A stretch of 64,000 nt of DNA from Planctomycetaceae bacterium (GTDB taxonomy: Bacteria > Planctomycetota > Planctomycetia > Pirellulales > Lacipirellulaceae): the NCBI GenBank assembly GCA_002702655.1, contig PABB01000072.1:1-64000 (forward strand). The letters are read 5' to 3'. Below the pieces are notes generated by a model that ran no database searches, had not been told where the DNA came from, and was given only the letters and a program-made list of their open reading frames with translations. Below are positions 3,256-13,347 of this stretch, one piece after another (positions within the stretch are counted from its first letter, which is position 1; every line of letters begins with the position of its first letter). Position numbers and translations under genes: made by a program.

Positions 3256-4743
3256 CTAATCGGTGTCTGTTTTGTCCTGCCCAGTGAGGCCCAGCCGTCT
3301 CAGCATCGGCCCCATGGTCAGCCCGCCGACGAGGATCGAGAAGGCGACGACGACGTAGGTCATGGTCAGGACCAGTTCGCCGACGTTATCGTACTGCGAT
3401 TGCTGGGCGTGAATCTCTTCCTTGAGCGATAGGGCGAGTGCAACACTGATCCCGCCGCGCAGGCCGCCCCAGGTCATGACCTTGATCGCGTGCGGCGTGA
3501 ACTCTCGGCCGGTCGCCTTTTTCAAGGCGGTCACCACCGTACCGACAGACAGGAACCTCGCCATCAGCGCCGCGGGGATCGCCAGGGCCCCGGCGAGCAG
3601 ATACTGCCTCTCGAACGAAAGCACCAAGACCTCCAGCCCGATCAGCACAAACAGCACCGCGTTGAGCAATTCGTCCACCAACTCCCAGAACGTGTCCAGG
3701 TGCTCGCGCGTTTTGTCGGACATCGCCAGCGTTCGGCCATGGTTGCCCAGGATCAGTCCCGCGACCACCATCGCCAACGGCCCGGACAGGTGCAGCTTCA
3801 TCGCCAGCGCATATCCGCCCGTCACCACCGCCAGCGAAAGCAAGATTTCCGTCGCGTAGTGATCGATTGATCGCAACAGGAAGAAGGCGAGCAGCCCCAG
3901 CACAAAGCCCAACGCAATCCCGCCGCCGGCTTCGAGGGCGAAGAGCTTGGCGACGTCGATTGCTTGCGTCTCTGTCTCGCCCAGGCCTTCTTGAACATCG
4001 TGCGGATGTTCACGTTCGAGCTGTTTCGCATCATGAGGTGCGTGAAGCATGACGGTTGGCGAAGCGCCAGCGTTGGGTCGCATGCCGACATCGCCCTGGA
4101 CCTGCTCAATGACGCCATCGAAATCAGCCTTCTTCTTGAGGTCTTCAGGCGACTCACCATGCCCGCCCAACCCCGCGATCCCCAAGAGCGCAATAAACAC
4201 CACCACGCCCACGCCATCGTTGAACAGCGACTCGCCCGCGATCTTGGTTTCCAGCGACTTGGGTGCGCCGAGGCTCTTGACGATCCCCAAGACCGCGATC
4301 GGGTCGGTTGGCGCAATGATCGAGCCAAAGATCAGGCAGTAGACGAAGCGGACCTCGATGCCGAGCCAGCCGGTGATGACGTAGGCGAGTCCCCCGACGA
4401 TGAACGTCGTGGCGAGGACGCCGACGGTTGCGAGCAGGACGATGACCGCGGTTTGTTGCTTGAGGTCGTTGAGGTTGACATGCAACGCCCCGGCAAAGAG
4501 CAGGTAGCCGAGCATCCCCTGCATCAGCGTCTGGTCGAAGTCGATCGAGCCGATGAGCGTCTCGGCCAAGGTGAGCACGCCCGCCCCCGGCACGATCCAA
4601 TCAGTCAGCAGCAATGCGACCGCGTGCAGCATGGCCAGCAGCATCAAGCCCACCGTCGTTGGCAGCTTGAGCAGTTTGTGGTTGATGAACGCGAAGGCCG
4701 CTGCGAGGGCCACGAGGACGCCGGCGATATCGAAGAAGCTCAT
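3256..4743 (-). CDS. Na+/H+ (cation:proton) antiporter, CPA1/NhaP type
   Basis: 10-12 TM segments with the [11 protein letters not shown] and SLFNDG motifs. Start ATG at 4741-4743 is preceded by AAGGAGGG. Contains an unusual hydrophilic insert of about 75 aa. Confidence 0.8.
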
Positions 4744-5401
4744 GCCCTCCTTTGTACGGTACTTCGCCCGAGGAAGAAATCGCGTAACGCTTTCGGACCG
4801 TCTGCCGAAACGTCGGACGTGGGCGCGCTTCGGGGGGACTGGTCGTCTCACCCATTCGAATCCAGCCAGTCAAGTCACCCCTGCCGCAACAGCGAGCCAT
4901 GGAGGAAGGTCTCTCACCGTTCCGCTGCCACTTTGCGGAGAAACTGCCCTTGTTCAGCGAGCGGGGCAACCTTGATCGGGTCTTTCTTCTCCGATTTGTC
5001 CGCCGTCGCCATTTCAGATCCTCGCCCCGCAAATGCCGCTGATGTGTAAGCACGCCGTCCTGCCTATCATGCGGCTTGATCGAACGTGCGCCCACTTCGT
5101 GACGGATTTCACGAACTCAATTTTCTCATTTTCTTAGAAATTGTGCGTGAACCTTTCCCGGTTTCCGACATCTATACATGTAGCCCGCGACCGACAAGGG
5201 AAATGCGAGCTTAGATTTGAGTAGTGCAGTTTTCGATTTCGTTGTTGGAGAACGAATCATGTTACGGCTGAGTTTCATATGCTCATCGCTCGCGGCGAAT
5301 ATCGCCGGCTTGCCGTTCGCCCATCAGGCGAGCGATAAGCCCGGTTGTGCGCCCGCCGGCGAACAAAGGCGCAGATGACACTTGGCCGAACTCTTTGATG
5401 A

Positions 5402-5410
5402 GCCACAAGG
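5402..5410. repeat. 9-bp direct repeat GCCACAAGG, left copy; the right copy is at 11272-11280
   Basis: Identical 9-mer occurs immediately before the first tRNA-like gene and immediately 5-prime of the terminal tRNA-Asn. Confidence 0.35.
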
Positions 5411-5444
5411 CCCGGTGTCACTGCGACATCGGGCCTTTTTCTTT
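5409..5444 (+). terminator. Rho-independent terminator-like hairpin
   Basis: GGCCCGGTGTCACTGCGACATCGGGCC stem-loop followed by TTTTTCTTT. Confidence 0.5.
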
Positions 5445-5485
5445 GGCCGAGTGCCGATCGAAGAGGCCGACCCCCTACGGAATTT

Positions 5486-5557
5486 GGGCTGGTAGCTGAG
5501 ACGGTCTAGCGGCGGTCTGAAGAACCGCAGACGAGGATTCGAGCGCCTCCCGGCCCA
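5486..5557 (+). tRNA. tRNA-Phe(GAA)
   Basis: Acceptor GGGCTGG/CCGGCCC, D stem GCTG/TAGC, anticodon stem GCGGT/ACCGC with loop CTGAAGA. T-loop TTCGAGC with a noncanonical A53.G61 pair. 4-nt variable loop. Confidence 0.5.
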
Positions 5558-5593
5558 CTCTGCGCACCCGGTGCGCGCACTGCGAAACAACAC

Positions 5594-5666
5594 GGCCCGT
5601 TCGACTTCGGGTGAGGTCATCGGTCTTTCAAGCCGATCAGGTAGGGTTCGACTCCCACACGGGTCA
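5594..5666 (+). tRNA. tRNA-Glu(TTC)
   Basis: Acceptor GGCCCGT/ACGGGTC, anticodon stem TCGGT/GCCGA with loop CTTTCAA. T-loop TTCGACT with only a 3-bp T stem. Confidence 0.45.
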
Positions 5667-5739
5667 CTGCAAATCAGAACGTAGCGAAGTTTGGCATCGC
5701 GCTTGGCTGGGGGCCAAGAGATCGTCGGTCGATTTCTTG

Positions 5740-5788
5740 CTACCGCCCTGCGCTCGGCTGACGTTGAGTCAGCCGTGCTCGGTTGCTC
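5740..5788 (+). ncRNA. conserved-flank hairpin element, copy A
   Basis: Flanks CTACCGCCCTGCGC and GCTCGGTTGCTC are identical to copy B at 8799-8847. Between them is a perfect 7-bp hairpin GGCTGAC/GTCAGCC. The stem sequence differs between copies but the structure is kept. Confidence 0.4.
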
Positions 5789-5812
5789 GTTCTGACTTAC
5801 GCAATGACAACT

Positions 5813-5885
5813 CGGGCGGAGGTGCAGATGGGAGCACGCCGGTTTTGGGAACCGGAGGCTCTGGGTTCGACCCCCAGGCGCCCGA
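5813..5885 (+). tRNA. tRNA-Pro(TGG)
   Basis: C1-G72 first pair typical of bacterial tRNA-Pro. D stem GTGC/GCAC, anticodon stem CCGGT/ACCGG with loop TTTGGGA, T arm CTGGG-TTCGACC-CCCAG. Confidence 0.6.
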
Positions 5886-5903
5886 CTGATACGCAAACCA
5901 CGG

Positions 5904-5973
5904 TAGTCGAGGGCTGGTCGCCCCTACCCGGCTGATAACCGGGTCGCGCTGAGTTCGATTCCCTGGGCTACCA
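5904..5973 (+). pseudogene. degenerate tRNA-like, Ile(GAT)-type anticodon arm, with encoded CCA
   Basis: Anticodon arm CCCGG-CTGATAA-CCGGG and a TTCGATT T-loop, but the acceptor and T stems cannot be paired. Ends in CTACCA. Confidence 0.3.
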
Positions 5974-6057
5974 CTCGCATTCAACTTCACAAGCCACGAG
6001 GAACAACACGATGACGATCGTCCGGCGATGTAAACGGATACGCCCAACCCTGAACTT

Positions 6058-6129
6058 GGGGCTGTGGTGTAGCGGCTGCACAGCGGACTTTTAATCCGCA
6101 CGGTGAGGGTTCAAGTCCTTCCGGCCCCA
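6058..6129 (+). tRNA. tRNA-Lys(TTT)
   Basis: Acceptor GGGGCTG/CGGCCCC, D stem GTGT/GCAC, anticodon stem GCGGA/TCCGC with loop CTTTTAA, T arm GAGGG-TTCAAGT-CCTTC. Confidence 0.6.
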
Positions 6130-6133
6130 CTAT

Positions 6134-6207
6134 TGGCGCGTAGCGCAGTGGTGAGAGCGGCGACATTATAAGTCGCACCCTCGGAGGTTCGATTCCTCCC
6201 GCGCCAA
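6134..6207 (+). tRNA. tRNA-Ile(TAT), rare anticodon
   Basis: Perfect acceptor TGGCGCG/CGCGCCA with U1-A72. Anticodon stem GCGAC/GTCGC with loop ATTATAA, giving anticodon TAT. T arm GGAGG-TTCGATT-CCTCC. 6-nt variable region. Confidence 0.5.
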
Positions 6208-6218
6208 CTGAATAACAC

Positions 6219-6291
6219 GGGACTGAGGTGTTAGCGGCAGCATCCCTGGTTCTTACCCAGGCGGGTGAGGGTTCAAGTCCCTCTGGTCCCA
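6219..6291 (+). tRNA. tRNA-Lys(CTT)
   Basis: Acceptor GGGACTG/TGGTCCC, anticodon stem CCTGG/CCAGG with loop TTCTTAC, T arm GAGGG-TTCAAGT-CCCTC. Confidence 0.6.
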
Positions 6292-6380
6292 CTGAGTTTG
6301 ATGTCGGATGGCAAGCACGAGGCGTGTCGCAGCATTGCTCGGCGTGGATGACTCGTAAGGCGTTCGGCGCGAAAAAGGCA

Positions 6381-6530
6381 CTGGTCGTCTAGCGGCGAAG
6401 ACTCCGCTCTCGTACAGAGCAACTGAGGCCGCTGAGCGATAGCGAGGAGGGAGGCCGAAGGCGGTAGTAAGACACTGCTTCGAGTCCGGCCCGGTGCTCT
6501 GCCGTTCTTTGACAACTTACTTCGCATTGC
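6381..6530 (+). other. degenerate tRNA-like segment carrying repeat copy R1
   Basis: Has a D-arm-like GTCT-AGCGGCGA-AGAC and an anticodon-like GCTCT-CGTACAG-AGAGC. No pairing acceptor or T arm. Contains the 49-nt repeat at 6419-6467. Confidence 0.25.
6419..6467 (+). repeat. 49-nt repeat family copy R1 (GCAACTGAGGCCGCTGAGCGATAGCGAGGAGGGAGGCCGAAGGCGGTAG)
   Basis: 45/49 identical to R2 at 8629-8677. A more diverged copy R3 lies at 8955-9004 inside a long tRNA-like element. Confidence 0.6.
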
Positions 6531-6533
6531 TTT

Positions 6534-6604
6534 GCGCCCATGATGTAGTGGCAGCCTTCCTGCTTGCCATGCAGGGTGTGTCGGTTCGATTCCGGCTGGG
6601 CGCA
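6534..6604 (+). tRNA. tRNA-Gly(GCC)
   Basis: Perfect acceptor GCGCCCA/TGGGCGC, anticodon stem CCTGC/GCAGG with loop TTGCCAT, T arm GTCGG-TTCGATT-CCGGC. Followed by a T6 run. Confidence 0.55.
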
Positions 6605-6610
6605 TTTTTT

Positions 6611-6684
6611 CAGGACGTGGGAAAGCTTGGTATTCCGCGTGCTTCGGGCGCACGAGATCGCTGGTTCAAATCCAGCCGTCCTGA
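6611..6684 (+). tRNA. tRNA-Pro(CGG)
   Basis: Perfect acceptor CAGGACG/CGTCCTG with C1-G72, D stem GGAA/TTCC, anticodon stem CGTGC/GCACG with loop TTCGGGC, T arm GCTGG-TTCAAAT-CCAGC. Confidence 0.65.
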
Positions 6685-6692
6685 CTGACTAT

Positions 6693-6767
6693 TGCGGTGG
6701 GTCCTGTGCTGGTACGGGAAGGCGACTGTTAATCGTCGTGACGCAGGTTCGATTCCTGCCTCCGCAG
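6693..6767 (+). tRNA. tRNA-Asn(GTT)
   Basis: Acceptor TGCGGTG/CTCCGCA with one mismatch. Anticodon stem GGCGA/TCGTC with loop CTGTTAA, T arm GCAGG-TTCGATT-CCTGC. Confidence 0.55.
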
Positions 6768-6779
6768 CTCAAACGGACG

Positions 6780-6865
6780 GGCAAGCCAACGGGCGATGGC
6801 AGCTGCCTCGAAAGCAGTCGAGCGCCGAGCGCGCCTTGTGAGTTCGACTACCTCTCCTTCCGCTT
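6780..6865 (+). pseudogene. tRNA-like remnant
   Basis: Anticodon-like arm CTGC-CTCGAAA-GCAG and a T-loop-like GAGTTCGACTACCTC, but no acceptor pairing. Confidence 0.2.
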
Positions 6866-6868
6866 CAC

Positions 6869-6940
6869 GTGCCCTTGACCGAGCGGCCAAGGTGCCAGTC
6901 TTCCAAACTGGATAGGCGGGTTCGACTCCCGCAGGGCACT
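6869..6940 (+). tRNA. tRNA-Gly(TCC)
   Basis: Perfect acceptor GTGCCCT/AGGGCAC, anticodon stem CCAGT/ACTGG with loop CTTCCAA, T arm GCGGG-TTCGACT-CCCGC. Confidence 0.55.
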
Positions 6941-6949
6941 CTCAAGCTT

Positions 6950-7024
6950 TCCGGGGTCGTCGCTGTTGGTAGTGATGCCTGGCCTTGAACCAGGAGTCCG
7001 TAGGTTCGATTCCTACCCCCGGAA
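6950..7024 (+). tRNA. tRNA-Gln(TTG)-like with C33
   Basis: Perfect acceptor TCCGGGG/CCCCGGA, anticodon stem CCTGG/CCAGG with loop CCTTGAA, T arm GTAGG-TTCGATT-CCTAC. Confidence 0.45.
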
Positions 7025-7080
7025 CTCGCGAACCGTCCCCCACATGGGCTGGTCATGGTTCGACAACGCGAGGAGCTTCC

Positions 7081-7680
7081 ATGACCCAATTCCGTGAGAT
7101 ACGAGCCGATTTTGATCGCGACTCGATCGTCGTTTACCAGGCGTACCGTCCAGCCATCGCTGATGCAGCTTTGGAGGCCGGGCGATTCGTTGCTCCGTTC
7201 TCGTTCGGTCGTATGACTTGGATCAAGCCGTCGTTCCTATGGCTGATGGAGAGAAGCAATTGGGCCCGAAAGTCGGGCCAAGAGCGTATCTTGGCCATCC
7301 GCATAAAACGCAGCGGATGGGATTTGGCGTTAAGTGAGGCAGTGCTGACGTGTTTCGAGCCGAGGACTCATGGATCGATCGACCAATGGCGAGAGAAGTT
7401 TGACGAAGCCCACGTCCACGTGCAGTGGGATCCAGAGCGATCAATTCACGGGAAGAAGCTTGAGCATCGGTCGATTCAGGTCGCTATCGGCAGACAAGTG
7501 ATCAGCGAGTACGTGGAAGACTGGATTATCGAGCTAACGGACCTGACGCCACTTGCCAACAAAATCCGCCGACTGTGCGAGGAGGGCCACGCCGACCGAG
7601 GCAAGAGACTCCTCCCGTCGGAGAAACCATACGAGGTGTCGAATGAAACGGCTACACGACTGGCTATGACCGCCAGCTGA
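7081..7680 (+). CDS. DUF4291-like protein embedded in the tRNA array
   Basis: ATG at 7081 preceded by GAGGAG. The VYQAY and MTWIKPSFLWLM motifs match DUF4291 from memory. Stop TGA at 7678-7680, three nt before the next tRNA. Confidence 0.55.
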   Translation: MTQFREIRADFDRDSIVVYQAYRPAIADAALEAGRFVAPFSFGRMTWIKPSFLWLMERSNWARKSGQERILAIRIKRSGWDLALSEAVLTCFEPRTHGSIDQWREKFDEAHVHVQWDPERSIHGKKLEHRSIQVAIGRQVISEYVEDWIIELTDLTPLANKIRRLCEEGHADRGKRLLPSEKPYEVSNETATRLAMTAS

Positions 7681-7683
7681 CAC

Positions 7684-7754
7684 TGCGGGGTCGCGTAACG
7701 GCAGGACGGGGCGCTCTGAACGCCTTGGTGTTGGTTCGATTCCAGCCCCCGCAG
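7684..7754 (+). tRNA. tRNA-Gln(CTG)
   Basis: Perfect acceptor TGCGGGG/CCCCGCA, anticodon stem GGGCG/CGCCT with loop CTCTGAA, T arm GTTGG-TTCGATT-CCAGC. D arm irregular. Confidence 0.45.
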
Positions 7755-7759
7755 CTTAC

Positions 7760-7844
7760 GGAAGTCATCCGGCTGGATGAGGACGCTGTCTTGAAAACAG
7801 TTGGTCGCACCGGCGACTTGGGGATTCGAGTCCCTCGGCTTCCG
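7760..7844 (+). tRNA. tRNA-Ser(TGA), class II
   Basis: Acceptor GGAAGTC/GGCTTCC, anticodon stem GCTGT/ACAGT with loop CTTGAAA, long variable arm TGGTCGCACCGGCGACTT. T loop ATTCGAGT carries one extra nt. Confidence 0.55.
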
Positions 7845-7857
7845 CTCAACTCAACAC

Positions 7858-7930
7858 GGTCCTGTGGCCTAGCGGCAAAGGCAGCTTCCTTACAAGAAGA
7901 TGATCGGTGGTTCGAGTCCACCCAGGACTA
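7858..7930 (+). tRNA. tRNA-Val(TAC)
   Basis: Acceptor GGTCCTG/CAGGACT, D stem GCCT/AGGC, anticodon loop CTTACAA, T arm GGTGG-TTCGAGT-CCACC. Confidence 0.55.
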
Positions 7931-7940
7931 CTGGATAAGC

Positions 7941-7995
7941 GATGAACGATGAACGCGGAACTATGAACGGAGCGTTCAACGCTCATAGTTCATAG
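7941..7995 (+). other. AT-rich repeat/palindrome element between tRNAs
   Basis: Tandem GATGAAC GATGAAC is followed by nested inverted repeats CTATGAAC-GGAGCG-TTCAA-CGCTC-ATAGTTCATAG. Confidence 0.4.
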
Positions 7996-8010
7996 CTCGT
8001 TGTTCCAATT

Positions 8011-8085
8011 GTCCTCGTGGAGCAGCCTGGAGTGCTCGCCTGCCTGTCACGCAGGAGGACGCGGGTTCAAATCCCGCCGGGGACG
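8011..8085 (+). tRNA. tRNA-Asp(GTC)
   Basis: Acceptor GTCCTCG/CGGGGAC, D stem GAGC/GCTC, anticodon stem CCTGC/GCAGG with loop CTGTCAC, T arm GCGGG-TTCAAAT-CCCGC. Confidence 0.7.
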
Positions 8086-8167
8086 CTTTTGATGGCGGAT
8101 TGCGACATTCGCTATGTGCATGGATCTCAATCGGTTGTCGATTCGTGACTCGCATGCCAATAGGAAA

Positions 8168-8244
8168 GGCACGGTACGCAAACAGGAAAAGCGACGAAGC
8201 TCAAACCTTCGTGACGTTTGCGGGTTCGACTCCCGCCCGTGCTA
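8168..8244 (+). tRNA. tRNA-like with Leu anticodon CAA but class-I-like architecture
   Basis: Acceptor GGCACGG/CCGTGCT, 3-bp D stem CGC/GCG with an 11-nt loop, perfect anticodon stem CGAAG/CTTCG with loop CTCAAAC, 8-nt variable loop, T arm GCGGG-TTCGACT-CCCGC. Confidence 0.4.
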
Positions 8245-8259
8245 CTGACCGAGACACAT

Positions 8260-8358
8260 GCGTCGGCTGGGCACTGGCGAGCCGCAGTATTATTTGGAAA
8301 CGCGGGGCTGTAACCCACCCGCTTCCGAGCTATGCAGGTTCAACTCCTGCCCGGCGCA
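8260..8358 (+). tRNA. 99-nt tRNA-Tyr(GTA)-like with an AT-rich insertion
   Basis: Acceptor GCGTCGG/CCGGCGC pairs, T arm GCAGG-TTCAACT-CCTGC is perfect, and the Tyr-type loop CTGTAAC is present. A 17-nt AT-rich insert AGTATTATTTGGAAACG and an irregular anticodon stem disrupt the fold. Confidence 0.35.
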
Positions 8359-8368
8359 CTGACAACAC

Positions 8369-8439
8369 GGCCCGTTGGTCTAGCGGCAGGATGCGAGACC
8401 CTCAATCTCGCGGCGCGGGTTCGATTCCCGTACGGGCTA
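8369..8439 (+). tRNA. tRNA-Glu(CTC) with C33
   Basis: Acceptor GGCCCGT/ACGGGCT, anticodon stem CGAGA/TCTCG with loop CCCTCAA, T arm GCGGG-TTCGATT-CCCGT. Confidence 0.5.
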
Positions 8440-8446
8440 CTGATGC

Positions 8447-8549
8447 AGCCAAGTGGTGGAATAGGCGGGCACCAACCGTAGGTTGGTCGGCGCGACACTC
8501 AGAATGTCGTGCCACTTGTGGCGTGGGAGTTCGACTCTCCCCTTGGCTA
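8447..8549 (+). tRNA. tRNA-Leu(CAG), class II, with a 17-nt hairpin inserted in the D region
   Basis: Perfect acceptor AGCCAAG/CTTGGCT, anticodon arm CGACA-CTCAGAA-TGTCG, variable arm TGCCACTTGTGGCGT, T arm GGGAG-TTCGACT-CTCCC. An extra hairpin ACCAA-CCGTAGG-TTGGT sits between the D region and the anticodon stem. Confidence 0.45.
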
Positions 8550-8558
8550 CTGATTGAT

Positions 8559-8625
8559 GCGGGTGAGCCAGGCTCAGCCGGGCCTCATAAGCCCGGACCG
8601 TCGGGTGCGACTCCCGGACCCGCTA
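8559..8625 (+). pseudogene. degenerate tRNA-Met(CAT)-like
   Basis: Anticodon arm CCGGGC-CTCATAA-GCCCGG. T-loop TGCGACT, with G in place of the conserved U55. No room for a D arm. Confidence 0.3.
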
Positions 8626-8628
8626 CTA

Positions 8629-8677
8629 GCAACTGAGGCCGCCGAGCGATAGCGAGGATGAAGGCCGAAGGCGGTAG
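8629..8677 (+). repeat. 49-nt repeat family copy R2
   Basis: GCAACTGAGGCCGCCGAGCGATAGCGAGGATGAAGGCCGAAGGCGGTAG, 45/49 identical to R1. Confidence 0.6.
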
Positions 8678-8710
8678 CTCACCAAGAACTGCCGCGCAGC
8701 GACGATTGAT

Positions 8711-8786
8711 GACTGGGTACGCAAACTGGAAAAGCGACCAGGTCGAGAGCCTGGTGATTCTGTGGGTTCGACTCCCACCCTAGTCA
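8711..8786 (+). tRNA. tRNA-like with Leu anticodon GAG, class-I-like, paralogue of 8168-8244
   Basis: Acceptor GACTGGG/CCTAGTC, 3-bp D stem CGC/GCG with an 11-nt loop, anticodon stem CCAGG/CCTGG with loop TCGAGAG (C33), 7-nt variable loop, T arm GTGGG-TTCGACT-CCCAC. Confidence 0.4.
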
Positions 8787-8798
8787 CTTCGTGACAAA

Positions 8799-8847
8799 CT
8801 ACCGCCCTGCGCATACATGCCTTTTGGGCATGTATGCTCGGTTGCTC
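8799..8847 (+). ncRNA. conserved-flank hairpin element, copy B
   Basis: Same flanks as copy A. Perfect 11-bp hairpin GCATACATGCC-TTTTG-GGCATGTATGC. Confidence 0.4.
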
Positions 8848-8852
8848 TGAAT

Positions 8853-8925
8853 GATCCCGTGGTCCAACGGCAACGACGCCTGGGTGACAACCAGGAGAGC
8901 GATGGTTCGACTCCATCCGGGATCA
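8853..8925 (+). tRNA. tRNA-Val(GAC)
   Basis: Perfect acceptor GATCCCG/CGGGATC, anticodon stem CCTGG/CCAGG with loop GTGACAA, T arm GATGG-TTCGACT-CCATC. Confidence 0.6.
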
Positions 8926-8929
8926 CTTT

Positions 8930-9055
8930 GGTCTGTAAGTGTTGCGGCCGCACAAGCAAGGGCCGCCGCCGAGCAGTGCGCAGGAAGGAGGCTGGCCCGC
9001 GGTAGCAGAAAACACATAAGGACGAGGGCCGGGTTCAATTCCCGGACACGGACCT
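8930..9055 (+). other. 126-nt tRNA-like element with acceptor and T arm but a roughly 50-nt internal insertion (repeat copy R3)
   Basis: Acceptor GGTCTGT/ACGGACC pairs and T arm CCGGG-TTCAATT-CCCGG is intact. The interior carries the palindrome TTGCGGCCGCAA and an R-family repeat at 8955-9004. Confidence 0.3.
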
Positions 9056-9119
9056 TCAACCGAGCACGCTTGCCCAGAAGGCAAGCGAGCGCAGGGCGAA
9101 AGCAACTGACGAAAATCGC

Positions 9120-9192
9120 GGGCTGGCATGTTCCAAGGGGGCGACTGACTCTTGCAAGGTCGGTGCGAAGGGTTCGATTCCCTTCCGGTCCA
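9120..9192 (+). tRNA. tRNA-Ala(TGC)-like
   Basis: Acceptor GGGCTGG/CCGGTCC with 2 GU pairs, anticodon stem TGACT/GGTCG with loop CTTGCAA, T arm AAGGG-TTCGATT-CCCTT. D stem poor. Confidence 0.4.
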
Positions 9193-9202
9193 CTCACGAC
9201 GA

Positions 9203-9273
9203 GGGCTCATGGTCCAACGGGACGACACCGGCTCGGCAGGTCGGAGATCTGGGTTCGATTCCCAGTGGGTCCA
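9203..9273 (+). tRNA. tRNA-Ala(GGC)-like with C33
   Basis: Acceptor GGGCTCA/TGGGTCC, anticodon stem CCGGC/GTCGG with loop TCGGCAG, T arm CTGGG-TTCGATT-CCCAG. Confidence 0.45.
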
Positions 9274-9277
9274 CTCA

Positions 9278-9568
9278 TCAATCAGGCCAGATGCCGGCGT
9301 CAACGGCGGCTTGGCGATTGTGACCGCAGTCGACTTTGGCGCCATCTATCAGGACTTCAGGATAGTCACCCCGTTCAACATACAGTTGAGTATTGCCATC
9401 AGTCTCAACCATAGCGAACCAAGGCCCTTGATCTGTGTCAGAAACCATCGTTGAAGCGACAAGTTTTTCCTTGGGAAGCATGGTGTAGTCTTCGCCCCAG
9501 GGCTCGATCCATACGATGTGAGGACGAGGACGATCGTTGTAGATCTCGATTGAGGAGACTCGCTGCAT
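9278..9568 (-). CDS. hypothetical small protein (low-GC cargo ORF inside the array)
   Basis: ORF sits in a roughly 50% GC stretch between tRNAs. Start chosen at MQRVSS. No clear SD. Confidence 0.2.
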   Translation of the reverse strand: MQRVSSIEIYNDRPRPHIVWIEPWGEDYTMLPKEKLVASTMVSDTDQGPWFAMVETDGNTQLYVERGDYPEVLIDGAKVDCGHNRQAAVDAGIWPD

Positions 9569-9589
9569 GGCACCAGGATAGCGACTTCG

Positions 9590-9700
9590 AAACACGGAAG
9601 GTAGCCGGATACGGCTCGCCGGGCCAGTTTGCTCGGGCCGTGCGACTCCACAAGGGTCATGTGGGATCAAATCGGGCACCGACGCGCAGCGTTGGTCTAC
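9590..9700 (+). pseudogene. degenerate tRNA-like remnants
   Basis: TGCGACTCC T-loop variant and ATCAAAT loop fragments without a complete cloverleaf. Confidence 0.2.
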
Positions 9701-9729
9701 CTTCCGCTCGCGTTGATCGAATACGACAC

Positions 9730-9801
9730 AGCTCGATGGTGAAACGGACATCATGTCTCGCTTCTAACGAGAGGTTCCAGGTTCGAATCCTGGTCGAGCT
9801 G
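9730..9801 (+). tRNA. tRNA-Arg(TCT)
   Basis: Perfect acceptor AGCTCGA/TCGAGCT, D stem GTGA/TCAT, anticodon stem TCTCG/CGAGA with loop CTTCTAA, T arm CCAGG-TTCGAAT-CCTGG. Confidence 0.65.
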
Positions 9802-9812
9802 CTGAAGAGTAA

Positions 9813-9897
9813 GGAAGGGCAACCCGATTGGCGACGGGACCCGGTTGGAAGCCGGTTGAGCTTCATGGCCTTGAGGGTTCGACTCCCTCTCCTTCCG
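9813..9897 (+). tRNA. tRNA-Ser(GGA), class II
   Basis: Acceptor GGAAGGG/TCCTTCC, anticodon stem CCGG/CCGG with loop TTGGAAG, roughly 15-nt variable arm, T arm GAGGG-TTCGACT-CCCTC. Confidence 0.5.
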
Positions 9898-10519
9898 CTG
9901 GTTTGGTACGACCCTTTCCTGAGCGACTGTGGAAAACACGGAATGGGACAGATGCTACCAAAGAAATCCCAACAGAGATTAACCATATCAATAGCCAGGT
10001 ATGCCACCCGGAGTCCAGGAATCGCCCCCAATAGTCGATAACGCCGTGCTCACGCGACCAGCTTGCATCAGCAATGATGAGCGATGCAGTCACACAACTT
10101 GCCGCCCAACAGCCCAGGAACAACCACCACCCGGACGCCAGAACGCAGATCGCTAGAGGAAGTAGCAAGTTCAAAAGGCAACCAACGACCCAGCCGCCAA
10201 ATCCAAAACCGCGTATGAAAGGGCCAGCCCAATATACGGCCGAGGTCGCAACCAGGAATGCAACTACCGTCGAAACCGACTTTCCAGTCTCCGTTCCTGC
10301 AAACAGCTTTCTCTTGAAACTAACCGATCGAGGATGACACAAGATAGCAATCGCGAGTGCCGGCACAAACCCGATTGCAGAAAACACTGCCGCGATCCAA
10401 GGCGCGTCAGCAACACCTCCCCGAATCCATGACATCGCCACTGAAGTAAACAACCCAAATGCCGCTGCGCACAAGACCGCTTCCGAAGGAGAAAACGACT
10501 TTTGGTTCGAGTTGGCCAT
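9863..10519 (-). CDS. hypothetical multi-pass membrane protein (low-GC cargo ORF)
   Basis: 5-6 predicted TM helices. Roughly 50% GC, against above 60% for the surroundings. The ATG at 10517-10519 is preferred over the upstream TTG. The 3-prime 35 nt overlap tRNA-Ser on the opposite strand. Confidence 0.35.
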   Translation of the reverse strand: MANSNQKSFSPSEAVLCAAAFGLFTSVAMSWIRGGVADAPWIAAVFSAIGFVPALAIAILCHPRSVSFKRKLFAGTETGKSVSTVVAFLVATSAVYWAGPFIRGFGFGGWVVGCLLNLLLPLAICVLASGWWLFLGCWAASCVTASLIIADASWSREHGVIDYWGRFLDSGWHTWLLIWLISVGISLVASVPFRVFHSRSGKGRTKPAEGEGVEPSRP

Positions 10520-10551
10520 GAATCGCAAGTTACCACACAAATGAAGTCTGT

Positions 10552-10617
10552 GGTGTACACGGTACGCACGCCTGCCTGTGAAGCAGGAGGTACGGGTTCG
10601 ATTCCCGTCGGATACCC
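10552..10617 (+). pseudogene. tRNA-His(GTG)-like, degenerate
   Basis: Anticodon arm CCTGC-CTGTGAA-GCAGG and T arm ACGGG-TTCGATT-CCCGT, but a truncated D arm and a poorly pairing acceptor. Confidence 0.35.
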
Positions 10618-10622
10618 CTTAT

Positions 10623-10692
10623 GCGAGTGTGCTCCTGGGAGAGCAGTCAGCCTCCAAAACTGACGAACAGGGTTCGAATCCTTGCGCTCGTG
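10623..10692 (+). tRNA. tRNA-Trp(CCA)
   Basis: Acceptor GCGAGTG/CGCTCGT with 2 GU pairs. Anticodon loop CTCCAAA is closed by GTCAG/CTGAC plus a C.A pair. T arm CAGGG-TTCGAAT-CCTTG. Confidence 0.5.
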
Positions 10693-10696
10693 CTTT

Positions 10697-10784
10697 GCCG
10701 ACGTGGCCGAATAGCTAGGCGCCGGTTTTGCCCCGTCCCTAGATAAAGCAGCGGTTGATGCTGGTGCGACTCCAGTCGTCGACC
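10697..10784 (+). pseudogene. class-II-like tRNA-like with G55 T-loop variant
   Basis: Acceptor GCCGACG/CGTCGAC pairs 6/7. T arm GCTGG-TGCGACT-CCAGT. Anticodon region ambiguous. Confidence 0.3.
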
Positions 10785-10788
10785 CTAC

Positions 10789-10852
10789 ATCTCGATGGTG
10801 TAACGGACCGCACGGGGCTCTCCAAGTCCTGGTTCGATTCCAGGTCGAGATG
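10789..10852 (+). pseudogene. truncated tRNA-like, 64 nt
   Basis: Perfect acceptor ATCTCGA/TCGAGAT, D arm and T arm intact, CTCCAAG loop, but the 3-prime half of the anticodon stem and the variable loop are missing. Confidence 0.3.
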
Positions 10853-10860
10853 CTGCGAAC

Positions 10861-10932
10861 AGCCCGTGAGTGTGCCGGATAGCATGTCAGCTTCCGAAGC
10901 TGTTGGACCAGGTTCGATTCCTGGACGGGCTA
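10861..10932 (+). tRNA. tRNA-Arg(CCG)
   Basis: Perfect acceptor AGCCCGT/ACGGGCT, anticodon stem CAGC/GCTG with loop TTCCGAA, T arm CCAGG-TTCGATT-CCTGG. Confidence 0.6.
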
Positions 10933-10936
10933 CTAC

Positions 10937-11009
10937 GCCTTGCGAGTGTGACGGACGAGCACGGCAGACTTCGAATCTGCAAGACGGGGTTCGATTCCCT
11001 GGCGAGGTA
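10937..11009 (+). tRNA. tRNA-Arg(TCG)
   Basis: Acceptor GCCTTGC/GCGAGGT, D stem GTGT/GCAC, perfect anticodon stem GCAGA/TCTGC with loop CTTCGAA, T arm CGGGG-TTCGATT-CCCTG. Confidence 0.65.
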
Positions 11010-11013
11010 CTTC

Positions 11014-11084
11014 AGCCTGTGAGTGTGTTGGATGCACGCGACCGTGCGAAGGTCGTAGGCCAGGTTCGATTCCTGGACGGGCTG
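11014..11084 (+). tRNA. tRNA-Arg(GCG)
   Basis: Acceptor AGCCTGT/ACGGGCT, D stem GTGT/GCAC, perfect anticodon stem CGACC/GGTCG with loop GTGCGAA, T arm CCAGG-TTCGATT-CCTGG. Confidence 0.6.
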
Positions 11085-11091
11085 CTAATTT

Positions 11092-11162
11092 GACGCTGGA
11101 GCCAGATGGCCAGGCAGCCGGCTGCAACCCGGCCAAAGTGGGTTCGACTCCCACCGGCGTCT
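11092..11162 (+). tRNA. tRNA-Cys(GCA)
   Basis: Acceptor GACGCTG/CGGCGTC, perfect anticodon stem GCCGG/CCGGC with loop CTGCAAC, T arm GTGGG-TTCGACT-CCCAC. Confidence 0.6.
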
Positions 11163-11274
11163 CTTTGTAAGCGAGGTTTTGAAAGCGCTGGGCCAGCGGC
11201 GCCCTCGGCCCCTTTCACCAGGTTGGCCGGGTGTGTTCCGTGGATGGATTGTTACGAAGGCGCGCGAGACCGCC

Positions 11275-11348
11275 ACAAGGTTAGCTCAGTTGGTTAGAGC
11301 ACCAGGCTGTTAACCTGGCTGTCACGGGTTCGACTCCCGTACCACACC
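11275..11348 (+). tRNA. tRNA-Asn(GTT) with canonical body but non-pairing acceptor stem
   Basis: Canonical D arm TAGCTCAGTTGGTTAGAGC, anticodon arm CCAGG-CTGTTAA-CCTGG and T arm ACGGG-TTCGACT-CCCGT. The 5-prime acceptor ACAAGGT pairs with the 3-prime ACCACAC over only 3 of 7 positions. The 9-bp direct repeat abuts its 5-prime end. Confidence 0.5.
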
Positions 11349-11807
11349 GCAGGCTGAAAACCTGCTCCCTACGTGAGGGACCGACGCGGAAGCGTCACCA
11401 TGAAGCCCGAGGGTAGCGGACGGTCGATTGGTCTGCCGCGCGTGAGTGCGAGGCTTTGGCCTAGGCAAGCTCGTAGCGGCAGCACAGACCGGCGCTATGC
11501 AGTGCGTGGATACCGCTTTCACGCACGCTGTGTCCGAAGGTTGTGGAAGCCAAGTGTCGCCCAACGAGCAATGCTCGTGACGGCCTCACCGGTGAAAGCA
11601 ACTGGGAGATACAGCGAACATGACCGCTCAAATTGCACTCCGCGCACGGATGTGTGACCAGGCGAACCAGTTCGCTGCCCGAGGGCCTTTTTCCGTGAAC
11701 CAAGTACAGGCAACCGTCGTCCTGCACTTCCTATACACACCGTTTCTGTATTCGGGGCGGGCAGCCGACCGCCAACCTATCTCGGCTGGAAAGGAGGTAC
11801 ATGCCTC

Positions 11808-12914
11808 ATGTTGTTTTTCAAGAAGGTGAAGATCAAGAGTTACGAGGTCGGCCTGTACTTCCGTGACGGCGAGTTCAAGCGATTGCTGACCACCGGTCGA
11901 CACTGGTTGTTCGATCCGCTGTGGAAGGTCCGCGTCGACGTCGTGTCGCAGCGTGATCCGTGGCTGGTCCACGACAAGCTGGACGTGATCGTCAAGAGCG
12001 GCGCCCTGACGGGTCTGGCCAAGGTCGTCGACCTCAAGGACCACGAGCGGGCGCTCGTGTGGATCGAGGGCCGCTTCAGCCATGTTCTGCCGCCGGGACT
12101 GTACGCCTACTGGACCGGCTTCAAGGACGTGCGGGTCGCGGTGATCAACGCCCGTGAAGTTCGGCTGCAGCATGCGGACTTCAAGGCGATCGTCCGTTCG
12201 CCGCACGCTGCGCAGGTGCTCGACATCTGCACGGTCGAGCGGAACCACGTGGGCGTTGCCTTCGTCGACGGCGAGTACGTCGAGACGCTCACCCCGGGCC
12301 AGTACGCCTGGTGGCGTGGCGTCGCCGACGCGAAGGTGGTCGAGGTCGACCTACGCGAGCAGGCCTTGGACGTGGCGGGTCAGGAAATCATGACCGCCGA
12401 TAAGGTCACGCTCCGCATGAACGCCTTGGTCAACTACCGCGTGACCGACGCTCGCAAGGCTGTGATGGTCAGCGACGGCGCGACGCAGTCGCTGTACCGC
12501 GAGGCTCAGCTGGCGTTGCGTGCCGTGGTTGGGATTCGCGACTTGGACTCGTTCCTGACGGACAAGGACGCCGTCGCCAGCGAGTTCGCGGAGCAGGTCA
12601 GCCGACGGGCGGGTGAGTTGGGTCTGGAAGTGGTTTCGGTAGGTGTCCGCGACGTCATCTTGCCGGGCGACATGAAGGACCTGATGAACAAGGTCACCGA
12701 GGCCAAGAAGGCCGCCGAGGCGAACCTGATCTCGCGACGCGAGGAGACGGCGGCCATGCGTAGCCAGGCGAACACCGCCAAGCTGCTCGCCGACAACCCG
12801 ACGCTGATGCGTCTCCGGGAACTGGAGGTCCTGGAGAAGGTCGCCACGAGCGGCAAGCTCAACGTCGTCTTGGGCGAGAAGGGCCTCGCCGATCGCGTGG
12901 TCAACCTGTTGTAG
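11808..12914 (+). CDS. SPFH/band 7 domain protein (stomatin/slipin-like)
   Basis: ATG at 11808 preceded by AAGGAGG. SPFH core with a C-terminal coiled coil. Followed by a strong terminator. Confidence 0.8.
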   Translation: MLFFKKVKIKSYEVGLYFRDGEFKRLLTTGRHWLFDPLWKVRVDVVSQRDPWLVHDKLDVIVKSGALTGLAKVVDLKDHERALVWIEGRFSHVLPPGLYAYWTGFKDVRVAVINAREVRLQHADFKAIVRSPHAAQVLDICTVERNHVGVAFVDGEYVETLTPGQYAWWRGVADAKVVEVDLREQALDVAGQEIMTADKVTLRMNALVNYRVTDARKAVMVSDGATQSLYREAQLALRAVVGIRDLDSFLTDKDAVASEFAEQVSRRAGELGLEVVSVGVRDVILPGDMKDLMNKVTEAKKAAEANLISRREETAAMRSQANTAKLLADNPTLMRLRELEVLEKVATSGKLNVVLGEKGLADRVVNLL

Positions 12915-12937
12915 CCAATCCCCTTGTTGATGCGGGA

Positions 12938-12972
12938 CCGGAGCCCGGGAGTGATCTCGGGCTCCGGTTTTC
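12938..12972 (+). terminator. Rho-independent terminator
   Basis: CCGGAGCCCGGGAGTGATCTCGGGCTCCGG followed by TTTT. Confidence 0.7.
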
Positions 12973-13147
12973 CGTGCGCGAACCTTCGTTGCCATGCCGT
13001 GTCATTCCCGCGGCACAACCGCAACCCCACCTTCAGCTATGAACACGTTCGAATCAAGCCAAACATCCTCGTCAACCTCGTCAGACGCTTCGGCGTCGGG
13101 CCGTAGGACAGCGCTTGCGTATGGCTGATTAATTTCAGAACGCTAGC

Positions 13148-13186
13148 AAAGCCCGCCCGGCTCACGAGCCTGGCGGGCTTTTTTCG
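13148..13186 (+). terminator. Rho-independent terminator-like hairpin
   Basis: AGCCCGCC...GGCGGGCT stem followed by TTTTTT. Confidence 0.55.
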
Positions 13187-13347
13187 TTTCTGGAGATGGG
13201 GAACGGCTTCGTTTGCCAACAACCCCTGTCGAGTTGCGACCGCTGCCCTGGCGCTGCATGGGCACAAAAAGGCCGTTGAGGCTGCTCACCTCTCCGGCTG
13301 GCCAGCGGTCGCGACGCAATTCCTTGTAGGAAAGGAGTGATAGAGCG

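Follow-up and report, generated by a model that had tools for sequence, protein, structure and literature searches.

A dense transfer RNA gene array behind a conserved leader in an uncultured planctomycete: a possible reserve operon for times of faltering translation

Background

Why should a planctomycete chromosome carry some 40 transfer RNA (tRNA) genes packed side by side on one strand? The question is raised by a 64,000-nucleotide (nt) stretch of DNA from a Planctomycetaceae bacterium (GenBank assembly GCA_002702655.1, contig PABB01000072.1, positions 1 to 64,000 of the forward strand), which we refer to as the window. An initial annotation, made from the letters alone, described a dense array of tRNA and tRNA-like genes between positions 5402 and 11348 and likened it to the accessory or mobile tRNA arrays of some bacteria and phages. 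Long tRNA arrays are a known and poorly understood class of loci, and why bacteria keep them is still an open question; only the array of Anabaena has been shown to be inducible and to be useful under translational stress. In the survey by Tran et al. 2016 (PMC4758250), a tRNA array unit is defined as at least 20 tRNA genes at a density of at least 2 per kb, and Planctomycetes are already among the phyla listed as having such units. The arrays known as L-arrays are long, same-strand and non-periodic, are spread by horizontal gene transfer, contain pseudogenes and have HNH and rtcB neighbours; they are reported to be mostly silent in normal growth and inducible by translational stress, with tRNAs that become charged, and the L-array of Anabaena is silent until translation is impaired (PMC8421152).

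The unit described here consists of a conserved leader of ~390 nt and, behind it, ~40 tRNA genes that all lie on the same strand and run in a set order, with Phe as the first and Cys as the last; it resides on the chromosome of an uncultured planctomycete. As far as classification alone is concerned, we are confident that the array belongs to the known class of tRNA array units or L-arrays. For its nature and use as a whole, we lean towards the view that it is a horizontally spread, supernumerary tRNA operon that is gated by its leader and drawn upon when translation falters.

Results

The tRNA genes of the array

With its default settings, ARAGORN predicted 29 tRNA genes in the window, all of them on the plus strand and all between 5486 and 11163, which amounts to ~5.1 genes per kb over 5.68 kb; it made no tRNA call in the other 58 kb. 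The Rfam tRNA model RF00005 accepted 25 units at or above its gathering score (29.8-61.1 bits, best E-value 9e-11), including one at 11279-11343, and these E-values alone suffice to exclude a chance origin of the array. Relaxed ARAGORN settings added Ser(CGA), Ser(TGA), Ala(TGC), Leu(CAG) (called at 8463-8550) and a unit with a CAT anticodon, and a permissive Rfam search returned sub-threshold tRNA-like matches at 6692-6767, 6775-6861, 7760-7843, 9813-9896, 5675-5737 and 8560-8634. When the count is extended beyond these calls by alignment to intact syntenic arrays from other genomes, the array comprises 41 tRNA-derived units in 5.86 kb, of which ~32 are plausibly functional, 8 are disrupted and 1 is a terminal Asn relic (Table 1).

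Most spacers between the units measure 3-100 nt, the exceptions being the place occupied by a DUF4291 gene and two insertions of 0.3-0.65 kb with antisense open reading frames (ORFs), and the GC content of ~62% overall falls to 58% over the array. The order of anticodons is non-repeating. According to ARAGORN and TRF the array is non-periodic apart from a single local repeat of three Arg copies (CCG, TCG and GCG; 10859-11087, period 77, 68% matches by TRF), which looks like a local duplication that was followed by divergence of the anticodons. The functional set covers 17 amino acids in addition to the CAT unit. It has no working gene for Thr or for Tyr, the latter because the Tyr gene is disrupted, and no canonical Met or initiator gene. 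Since usable Thr, Tyr and Met/fMet (formyl-Met) genes are lacking, the array cannot be the sole tRNA set of its host, and other tRNA genes must exist.

The dense array of "about 40" units that the initial annotation proposed is thereby borne out. Its numbers of about 30 assignable anticodons and about 10 degenerate members were correct as well, as was the absence of Thr and of a clean Met, all three Thr genes being broken; the covariance-model search that it had suggested as a check accepted, with 25 units, more than the handful it had feared. The anticodon list that went with these counts had no entry for Ile(GAT), Leu(CAA), Leu(GAG) or His(GTG) and left out a third Ser. One of its two Asn genes is intact and the other, at 11279-11343, has a broken acceptor stem; Leu(CAG) carries a 19-nt insertion. 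At 10697-10785 ARAGORN miscalls the broken Thr(TGT) gene as Gln(TTG).

Several of the retained genes are noncanonical in ways that recur from array to array. In every array the D loop of Ile(GAT) is small and its T stem mismatched, and RF00005 does not match the window copy (5902-5974) at E<10. The Leu genes with CAA and GAG anticodons, together with the TAA and TAG forms found elsewhere, have a variable region of only 8-9 nt and the discriminator A73 in every array. The CAT unit is built of a 6-base-pair (bp) acceptor stem, a 4-bp mini D hairpin and a T loop of the sequence TGCGACT, a structure kept in 4 arrays. Given the presence of Ile(TAT), decoding of AUA would need no lysidine-modified CAT tRNA.

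How these units have been maintained was examined in 32 orthologue groups from 5 arrays, each folded with RNAalifold. Among 731 predicted pairs, 603 are invariant, 58 show one-sided changes and 70 show compensatory double changes, and standard pairs occupy 2701 of the 2728 pair cells (99%), numbers that are flattered by the derivation of the structures from the same alignments. The 70 compensatory pairs argue strongly that the family has been kept as folding tRNAs.

Related arrays and their genomic contexts

A GTDB species collection probed with the DUF4291 protein encoded in the array yielded 80 loci. An array is adjacent in two of these (the top two, which alone carry tRNA genes) and missing from the remaining 78, which include the closest non-array relatives (Aeoliella). 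The two arrays, referred to as L001 and L002, lie 156 kb apart on one chromosome of Bythopirellula sp. (OZ245849.1), contain 35-36 and 40 tRNA genes, respectively, and keep the gene order of the window, including the DUF4291 gene between Gln(TTG) and Gln(CTG). Look-ups of proteins added L139, L141, L142 and L143, a profile of the leader peptide (see below) added L144, L146, L147 and the reduced locus L145, and a metagenome scan with DUF4291 gained one short array contig (L081). The order of the window is found at no fewer than eight of these loci, i.e. at least at L001, L002, L139, L141, L143, L144, L146 and L147, and the order common to the longer members is Phe-Glu-Pro-Ile-Lys-Ile(TAT)-Lys-Thr-Gly-Pro-Asn-Ser-Gly-Gln-Gln-Ser-Val-...-Arg-Arg-Cys.

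The homology between L001 and L002 starts ~385 nt before Phe and ends at Cys, and these limits delimit the unit that has moved or been duplicated. The flanks differ among the window, L001, L002, L139, L141, L144 and L147. The L002 array has an rve integrase gene upstream and a Ro60 gene downstream. In L139 a YrlA Y RNA (73 bits by Rfam), then rtcB and rtcA (2494-5413), lie directly upstream of the array, and in L147 the series rtcR - Ro60(rsr) - gap - rtcB - rtcA (741-7349) ends ~200 nt before the leader ORF, such that the L147 array may be read through from this operon or co-regulated with it. The array of L144 is located ~5 kb downstream of genes for a TraG coupling protein and a TrwC relaxase (L144 1-5113), which suggests that it rides on a conjugative element. 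L141 has an HNH endonuclease gene inside the array and, downstream, an SPFH gene as in the window; HNH genes occur in two further contigs. At L145 (10001-10450) the leader ORF and terminator are kept and only one Glu(TTC) and a broken Phe remain of the array; protein genes come next, an EF-Tu paralogue (12517-13698) among them.

These findings support the earlier suggestion of an accessory or mobile array, on the grounds of the incomplete tRNA set and of the presence of the same array in unrelated genomic contexts. The cargo ORFs proposed at the time are real, being represented by DUF4291 in the window, by the HNH endonuclease within L141 and by a DSP phosphatase in L001. The connection to phages, taken as a statement about origin, is unsupported, no matching array having been found in phage genomes or viral contigs.

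As a separate observation, L001 (7690-8385) and L139 (5950-6650) have in common a noncoding insert of ~700 nt between Phe and Glu that is absent from the window. At gathering score nothing in Rfam matches the insert, which may represent a structured RNA of large size.

The leader and a candidate switch

The homology common to all of the arrays begins at about position 5130, ahead of a leader ORF whose frame is open from an ATG preceded by a Shine-Dalgarno motif in 5 of 5 arrays. The ORF has 39-47 codons, and its insertions and deletions are multiples of 3. A profile of the predicted peptide detected 11 homologous ORFs called as genes in public assemblies; at each of the 4 loci that were fetched, array tRNA genes follow the leader directly, as a full or partial array in three cases and as an array remnant in one.

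The stop codon of the leader sits within the invariant sequence ATGACACTTGG. The overlapping strand TGACACTTGGCC shows little or no variation among 9 arrays and is able to pair with the 5' arm, GGCCCGGTGTCA, of a terminator-like hairpin (91% of cells paired in the 9 sequences). The hairpin itself lies ~30 nt beyond the leader stop and is kept in 9 arrays (96.6% of cells paired), as is an outer helix that encloses it (97.5% of cells paired, with one-sided changes only); terminator and outer helix together have 97% of cells paired across the nine sequences. When 5 arrays were folded without the 3' arm of the terminator, the minimum-energy structure was in each case the antiterminator (-19.6 to -23.9 kcal/mol), and masking of 22 nt around the leader stop, which mimics a terminating ribosome, is predicted to let the terminator fold. 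The strand common to both folds is invariant, and the 3' arm of the terminator varies by G-U, G-C or A-U switches only. This pattern of conservation is what a two-state switch would be expected to leave, without amounting to proof of one. A text search of the literature found no report of a leader-peptide attenuator on any tRNA operon.

Cargo within the arrays

The DUF4291 gene of the window begins 55 nt past Gln(TTG) and ends 3 nt ahead of Gln(CTG), and from this place between tRNAs its mRNA would be released from the array transcript as the neighbouring tRNAs are processed. A predicted model of the protein has an ADP-ribosyltransferase-like (ART) fold, and the closest structure is the C-terminal toxin of RhsP2 (PDB 7rt7), at a sequence identity of only 8%. 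RhsP2 ADP-ribosylates the 2'-OH of structured RNAs (PMC12340436, PMC11833690). For DUF4291 the proposed catalytic motifs are atypical, QAY/WxK/Q (PMC12522546), and the motif residues are invariant among 38 homologues. In comparison with RhsP2, the DUF4291 product stands alone as a cytoplasmic protein, outside any Rhs or type VI secretion system context and with no immunity gene adjacent; to judge from the model, it probably acts on RNA. The gene occupies other array positions in L081 and L142 and is absent from L144, L146 and L147, where Gln(TTG) and Gln(CTG) adjoin. We have therefore rejected it as an obligate component of the array and regard it as optional cargo.

Two putative ORFs specific to the window (9278-9568 and 9863-10540) lie antisense to the array. 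Neither has a match in Pfam, NCBIfam or PHROGs, nor the longer one (9863-10540), for which alone PADLOC was consulted, in PADLOC.

Broken genes and the pattern of their lesions

Three-way and per-gene local alignments identify the odd blocks of the window as orthologues of intact L001, L002 or L141 genes that have been hit by insertions or deletions. The Pro(GGG) block matches positions 1-59 of the 75-nt L002 gene and then diverges, and it scores only 19.4 bits in Rfam. Thr(CGT) has intact orthologues in L001, L002 and L141, and the window and L139 have the same insertion in it. Leu(CAG) was called by relaxed ARAGORN alone, with a shifted 5' end, and is probably inactive with its 19-nt hairpin. 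The terminal Asn relic reaches 54.8 bits in Rfam over model positions 5-66 only; in its L141 orthologue it is the anticodon loop that is broken instead.

The lesions are not spread evenly. The anticodon arm, ~22% of gene length, is hit in 6 of the 8 disrupted genes of the window (all three Thr genes, Arg(CCT), Ser(GCT) and Tyr) and, in a post-hoc count across the window, L001 and L139, in 9 of 15 lesions against the ~22% expected from length. An ADP-ribosyltransferase toxin delivered by the type VI secretion system is known to target the anticodon loops of tRNA-Thr (PMC13617354), and its link to the broken Thr anticodon arms may be coincidence. We rejected introns (of the group I or archaeal type) or ribozymes as an explanation of the interrupted genes: the inserts are 14-50 nt long and no Rfam intron or ribozyme family matched at E<10, and the intron reading fails also because the host genes have damaged stems or altered anticodons.

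Hairpin elements

Some of the interruptions, often in anticodon loops, are due to units of 47-50 nt in which conserved ends, AGCAACYGAG and GGCGGTAG, flank a hairpin. Copies of the B type vary in the sequence of this hairpin and keep its stem. Six such elements are found in the array of the window and none elsewhere in the window, further copies being present in L001 (8952-9001, plus strand; 9115-9160, minus strand) and L139 (7282-7331, plus strand), and a search of 1.97 Mb of sequence disclosed none outside tRNA arrays. Leu(GAG) is bracketed by an inverted pair, and this A-tRNA-B unit folds with its outer ends paired. Another inverted pair, in L001, encloses a divergent Lys(CTT), which is itself inserted in the anticodon loop of the resident Lys(CTT).

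By eye, no target-site duplications are seen flanking the elements. If the A element is read by eye as hammerhead-like, core position A9 does not fit, and integron attC-like sites were rejected because, again by eye, one end of the element is not the inverse complement of the other. The units may be a miniature mobile element, a recombination site or an RNA-level signal.

The surroundings in the window

The flanks of the array are chromosomal in character, with a Na+/H+ exchanger gene as the upstream neighbour. Downstream, the SPFH gene is 84% identical in amino acids to its counterpart in L141, and the ~450 nt between the Asn relic and this gene (window 11350-11800, L141 13920-14345) are noncoding and 81% identical; this stretch may be a structured 5' untranslated region or a noncoding RNA, as some of its blocks are fully conserved and the lengths of its indels do not keep to multiples of 3. 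A protein of 1223 amino acids whose only match is a DUF6896 segment is encoded on the minus strand (13162-16833) between the SPFH and RtcB genes. No match to the YrlA Y RNA was found near the RtcB gene, in 11150-19000, even at E<1.

Farther on, McrC/McrB-like genes (18818-21981) and a helicase-nuclease gene (25025-30538) form a defence-island context. A protein of 1837 amino acids with the domain series DUF4011-helicase-REase(MTES_1575)-WGR matches the PADLOC candidate PDC-S37 (E 4e-212) and Hhe. The cluster at 30620-37134, with ATP-grasp (YheC/D-like), leucine-rich repeat, DUF6745, sulfatase-like, radical SAM/HemN-like and SPASM-domain genes, may serve peptide modification.

Table 1. Positions of the leader, the tRNA-derived units, the inserted elements and neighbouring genes in the window
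Feature	Position	Strand	Basis and remarks
Presumed promoter region, conserved 5' of leader ORF	5130-5258	+	Alignment of 5 arrays
Leader ORF, 39 codons (MLRLSFICSSLAANIAGLPFAHQASDKPGCAPAGEQRRR, then stop)	5259-5378	+	Alignment; GGAG Shine-Dalgarno motif upstream
Candidate antiterminator strand TGACACTTGGCC	5376-5387	+	Overlaps leader stop TGA (5376-5378)
Outer helix CTCTTTGAT (5391-5399) / ATCGAAGAG (5457-5465), enclosing terminator	5391-5465	+	RNAalifold consensus
Intrinsic-terminator-like hairpin, 13 bp, GC-rich, then TTTTTCTTT	5407-5445	+	Terminator scan
tRNA-Phe(GAA)	5486-5558	+	ARAGORN; Rfam 52.4 bits
tRNA-Glu(TTC)	5594-5667	+	ARAGORN; Rfam 34 bits
Pro(GGG) pseudogene	5675-5795	+	T arm interrupted by hairpin element
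Hairpin element, B type (AGCAACCGAG-hairpin-GGCGGTAG)	5740-5787	-	Inside Pro(GGG)
tRNA-Pro(TGG)	5813-5886	+	ARAGORN; Rfam 48.8 bits
tRNA-Ile(GAT), noncanonical	5902-5974	+	ARAGORN only; other arrays keep it
tRNA-Lys(TTT)	6058-6130	+	ARAGORN; Rfam 61.1 bits
tRNA-Ile(TAT)	6134-6208	+	ARAGORN; Rfam 55.4 bits
tRNA-Lys(CTT)	6219-6292	+	ARAGORN; Rfam 45.7 bits
Thr(CGT) pseudogene	6378-6500	+	A-type 50-nt element directly 3' of anticodon; T stem degenerate
Hairpin element, A type	6418-6467	+	Inside Thr(CGT)
tRNA-Gly(GCC)	6533-6605	+	ARAGORN, Rfam; 73/73 nt identical with L001, L002, L139
tRNA-Pro(CGG)	6611-6685	+	ARAGORN; Rfam 58.5 bits
tRNA-Asn(GTT), 76 nt, atypical	6693-6768	+	ARAGORN; below RF00005 gathering score; tRNA-Sec model 30.9 bits
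tRNA-Ser(CGA), long variable arm	6775-6863	+	Relaxed ARAGORN; orthologues in L001, L002, L141
tRNA-Gly(TCC)	6869-6941	+	ARAGORN; Rfam 59.5 bits
tRNA-Gln(TTG)	6950-7025	+	ARAGORN; Rfam 29.8 bits
DUF4291 protein gene, 199 amino acids	7081-7680	+	Pfam E 4e-69; GAGGAG Shine-Dalgarno motif
tRNA-Gln(CTG)	7684-7755	+	ARAGORN; Rfam 39.6 bits
tRNA-Ser(TGA)	7760-7845	+	Relaxed ARAGORN; tRNA-Sec model 34 bits; orthologues
tRNA-Val(TAC)	7858-7931	+	ARAGORN; Rfam 61 bits
tRNA-Asp(GTC)	8011-8086	+	ARAGORN; Rfam 58.3 bits
tRNA-Leu(CAA)	8168-8245	+	ARAGORN; Rfam 48.1 bits; form kept in L001, L002, L141
Tyr(GTA) pseudogene	8260-8359	+	~20-nt insert instead of 5' anticodon stem (versus L001/L002)
tRNA-Glu(CTC)	8369-8440	+	ARAGORN; Rfam 56.8 bits
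Leu(CAG), only long-arm Leu	8447-8550	+	19-nt hairpin after D arm (versus L001/L002/L141)
CAT-anticodon tRNA-like unit	8555-8626	+	ARAGORN only at 80% threshold; viral tRNA-like model 27.3 bits
Hairpin element, A type	8628-8677	+	Left of Leu(GAG)
tRNA-Leu(GAG), short variable region	8711-8787	+	ARAGORN; Rfam 44.2 bits
Hairpin element, B type	8799-8846	-	Right of Leu(GAG)
tRNA-Val(GAC)	8853-8926	+	ARAGORN; Rfam 59.1 bits
Thr(GGT) pseudogene	8930-9056	+	Degenerate A-like element (8955-9007) instead of 5' anticodon stem and anticodon
Degenerate A-like element	8955-9007	+	Weak nhmmer match, E 0.13
Hairpin element, B type, degenerate	9057-9101	+	nhmmer E 1.8e-5
tRNA-Ala(TGC), borderline	9120-9193	+	Relaxed ARAGORN; L001 orthologue
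tRNA-Ala(GGC)	9203-9274	+	ARAGORN; Rfam 50.2 bits
Antisense ORF, ~96 amino acids, window-specific	9278-9568	-	No family match
Ser(GCT) pseudogene	9596-9708	+	Broken anticodon loop and T arm; alignment
tRNA-Arg(TCT)	9730-9802	+	ARAGORN; Rfam 60 bits
tRNA-Ser(GGA)	9813-9898	+	ARAGORN; tRNA-Sec model 35.5 bits
Antisense ORF, 225 amino acids, hydrophobic, window-specific	9863-10540	-	No family match; absent from L001, L002
tRNA-His(GTG)	10544-10618	+	ARAGORN; Rfam 45.3 bits
tRNA-Trp(CCA)	10623-10693	+	ARAGORN; Rfam 32.2 bits
Thr(TGT) pseudogene	10697-10785	+	TGT changed to TGC, 14-nt insert in anticodon loop (versus L001/L002)
Arg(CCT) pseudogene	10789-10855	+	8-nt deletion, anticodon loop lost (versus L002)
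tRNA-Arg(CCG)	10861-10933	+	ARAGORN; Rfam 45.1 bits
tRNA-Arg(TCG)	10937-11010	+	ARAGORN; Rfam 31 bits
tRNA-Arg(GCG)	11014-11085	+	ARAGORN; unlisted as RF00005 by Rfam
tRNA-Cys(GCA)	11092-11163	+	ARAGORN; Rfam 47.7 bits; last gene of Bythopirellula-duplicated unit
Relic of canonical-looking tRNA-Asn(GTT)	11279-11343	+	Acceptor stem 3/7 pairs
SPFH/Band-7 protein gene	11808-12914	+	Pfam
RtcB RNA ligase gene	17565-18716	+	Pfam 2e-82; 6.4 kb downstream

Discussion

A proposed mode of action

The features described above can be assembled into the following scheme for a reserve operon. Transcription would begin upstream of the 39-codon leader ORF. The leader stop lies in the 12-nt strand TGACACTTGGCC, which would be able to pair with the 5' arm of the terminator 30 nt farther on. 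As long as the ribosome keeps pace with RNA polymerase, the terminating ribosome would mask this strand, the terminator would form and the array would remain silent; if translation is slowed, as it might be by toxins that cleave or modify tRNAs, by antibiotics or by starvation, the strand would be free, the antiterminator would form and polymerase would enter the array. RNase P and RNase Z would then free a near-complete pool of spare tRNAs, which might restore decoding or soak up toxins that target tRNA. The DUF4291 mRNA, situated between two tRNAs, would be expressed only when the array is read, and the RtcB, RtcA and Ro60 genes beside several arrays suggest that array and RNA repair might belong to one stress response.

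A number of points weigh against this scheme. We infer every functional step of it from the sequence. The window copy is in decay, with 8 of 40 genes broken, six hairpin elements and two antisense ORFs, and because it is decaying it may be partly or wholly silent. A scan of 4900-11900 found no sigma-70 consensus promoter, so that the assignment of the promoter to 5130-5258 is presumptive; planctomycete promoters are poorly known. No double compensatory substitutions occur in the attenuator across the nine sequences, for which reason conservation and predicted energies are what the alternative pairing rests on. The hairpin could merely terminate a small upstream gene, with an unrecognised promoter after it. 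In the window, RtcB is no more than a neighbour, 6.4 kb off and beyond a gene of opposite strand. DUF4291 is dispensed with in three of the arrays, and neither PADLOC nor NCBIfam assigns a role to it. Taken by itself, the attenuator mechanism is accordingly put forward as a tentative model. Together with the adjacency to Rtc and Ro60 genes, the RhsP2-like cargo and the anticodon-arm lesions, it represents a set of new and testable leads that are not established.

A more far-reaching version of the scheme would make of the array a self-gated cassette for the rescue of translation (the first attenuator reported on a tRNA operon, with Rtc/Ro60 repair working beside it) and of the hairpin units a new kind of small mobile element that homes to tRNA genes, by preference to their anticodon arms, and inverted pairs of which could carry a replacement tRNA gene, as around Leu(GAG) in the window and around the inserted Lys(CTT) in L001. 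We consider this combination doubtful.

Other explanations

The signs of decay just mentioned raise the possibility that the array, having been acquired horizontally, is now a silent and eroding remnant whose intact-looking genes have merely not been hit so far. Besides the disrupted genes, the terminal Asn relic and the inserted elements and antisense ORFs, this would agree with L145, in which a leader with a broken Phe and one Glu shows what the end state looks like, and with the reported silence of most L-arrays (PMC8421152). We nevertheless regard it as unlikely: ~32 genes retain full cloverleaves, the window has an intact leader ORF, an intact terminator and an intact DUF4291 gene, the 70 compensatory changes in the orthologues point to a lineage under purifying selection, and the clustering of lesions in anticodon arms does not suggest simple neutral decay.

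That same clustering is what a sponge might show. If the array RNAs served as decoys for tRNA-targeting toxins such as anticodon nucleases and RNA ADP-ribosyltransferases, even a member that has lost its anticodon would keep its use as a tRNA-shaped bait, and six of the eight lesions in the window hit the anticodon arm and spare the tRNA body. The array adjoins a defence island with McrBC and a PDC-S37/Hhe-like helicase-nuclease, several arrays lie beside RtcB, RtcA or Ro60 repair genes, a toxin of the ADP-ribosyltransferase type is known to attack tRNA-Thr anticodon loops (PMC13617354), and the sponge idea was raised by the authors of PMC8421152 themselves. Against a role as decoys stand the anticodon stems and loops, which are conserved and covary as in working tRNAs, the coverage of 17 amino acids by several isoacceptors each, as a decoding role would need, and the damage to the T arms of several broken genes, which would not fold like tRNAs. 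The decoy explanation thus appears improbable to us as the main function of the array.

An origin as a prophage or phage-derived cluster, serving phage codon usage or the evasion of host defences that deplete tRNAs, has in its favour that large phages carry similar arrays, that HNH homing endonucleases occur in related arrays and that RtcB has phage homologues (phrog_1075). It is made very improbable by a scan of window ORFs in which no phage genes for structure or replication turned up, by the chromosomal or conjugative contexts of the arrays, and by database searches: a megablast comparison of 5300-11500 with 50,697 phage genomes gave only an 86-nt tRNA-Ser similarity, and IMG/VR returned no match to a 24-mer of the array, to DUF4291 or to the leader motif. 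The same comparison with 72,556 plasmids gave no match. Finally, the notion that the array is the main tRNA gene cluster of the organism, which the presence of tRNAs for 17 amino acids on one strand might recommend, is effectively refuted by the lack of functional Thr and Tyr and canonical Met or initiator genes, by the many noncanonical, low-scoring members, by the two copies in one Bythopirellula chromosome and the patchy distribution among relatives, and by the location of one relative (L144) beside conjugation genes.

Significance

The planctomycete family, with at least nine comparable loci, provides a second, independent lineage in which the purpose of long arrays can be approached. The leader switch, if true, would explain how an array may stay silent while cells grow normally and yet respond directly to ribosome performance. 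The family also ties arrays physically to the rtcR-rsr-rtcBA RNA-repair operon and offers an embedded protein with a predicted RNA-modifying ADP-ribosyltransferase fold and a record of array decay in which hits are concentrated in anticodon arms, those of all three Thr genes included. With a true switch, tRNA supply, RNA repair and the conflict with toxins or phages would be joined in one regulated module; with a false one, the array would be one more example of a catalogued genomic oddity.

Comparison with known systems

With 29 (ARAGORN) or 25 (Rfam) genes at ~5.1 per kb, the array lies well within the definition of a tRNA array unit, and it resembles such units, as they are described in PMC4758250 and by Morgado and Vicente 2018 (PMC5966550), in the redundancy of its isoacceptors and in a probable link to mobile elements (one relative lies beside TraG and TrwC); the group compared includes the array of an Acidithiobacillus integrative conjugative element and the Mycobacterium arrays. 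This Pirellulales family itself was not found in the literature searched, a body that did not extend to the supplementary tables of these surveys. It is set apart by the order from Phe to Cys, the leader ORF, the class-I-like Leu tRNAs and the CAT unit with its mini D arm.

A close likeness in organization is to the trn operon of Anabaena sp. PCC 7120 (Santamaria-Gomez et al. 2021, PMC8421152), with its dozens of close same-strand tRNA genes. Like L-arrays in general, the arrays of the present family have genes in the same orientation with short spacers and in a non-periodic order, are probably supernumerary, contain pseudogenes, show a patchy distribution suggestive of horizontal transfer with differing insertion sites, have HNH and rtcB genes nearby (RtcB in the window, HNH in L141, rtcBA in L139 and L147, and in addition Ro60 in L002) and have a proposed role in translational stress. 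They differ from the Anabaena L-array in phylum and in gene order, in the DUF4291 genes that some of them carry and in the hairpin elements of 47-50 nt inserted in their genes. Regulation, too, is of another kind: 9-nt direct repeats in the promoter in the case of Anabaena, and a leader ORF, a terminator and a candidate antiterminator in the present one.

It is in this last respect that the planctomycete arrays recall the trp, his and pheL attenuators, with which they share a short ORF preceded by a Shine-Dalgarno motif, an intrinsic terminator and an alternative pairing over a region that a ribosome would cover. In contrast to those systems, the genes under control would be tRNAs and not biosynthetic enzymes, and the leader has no run of one regulatory codon. 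The proposed sensor would instead be the ribosome at the stop codon, such that the arrays might respond to the coupling of transcription and translation in general.

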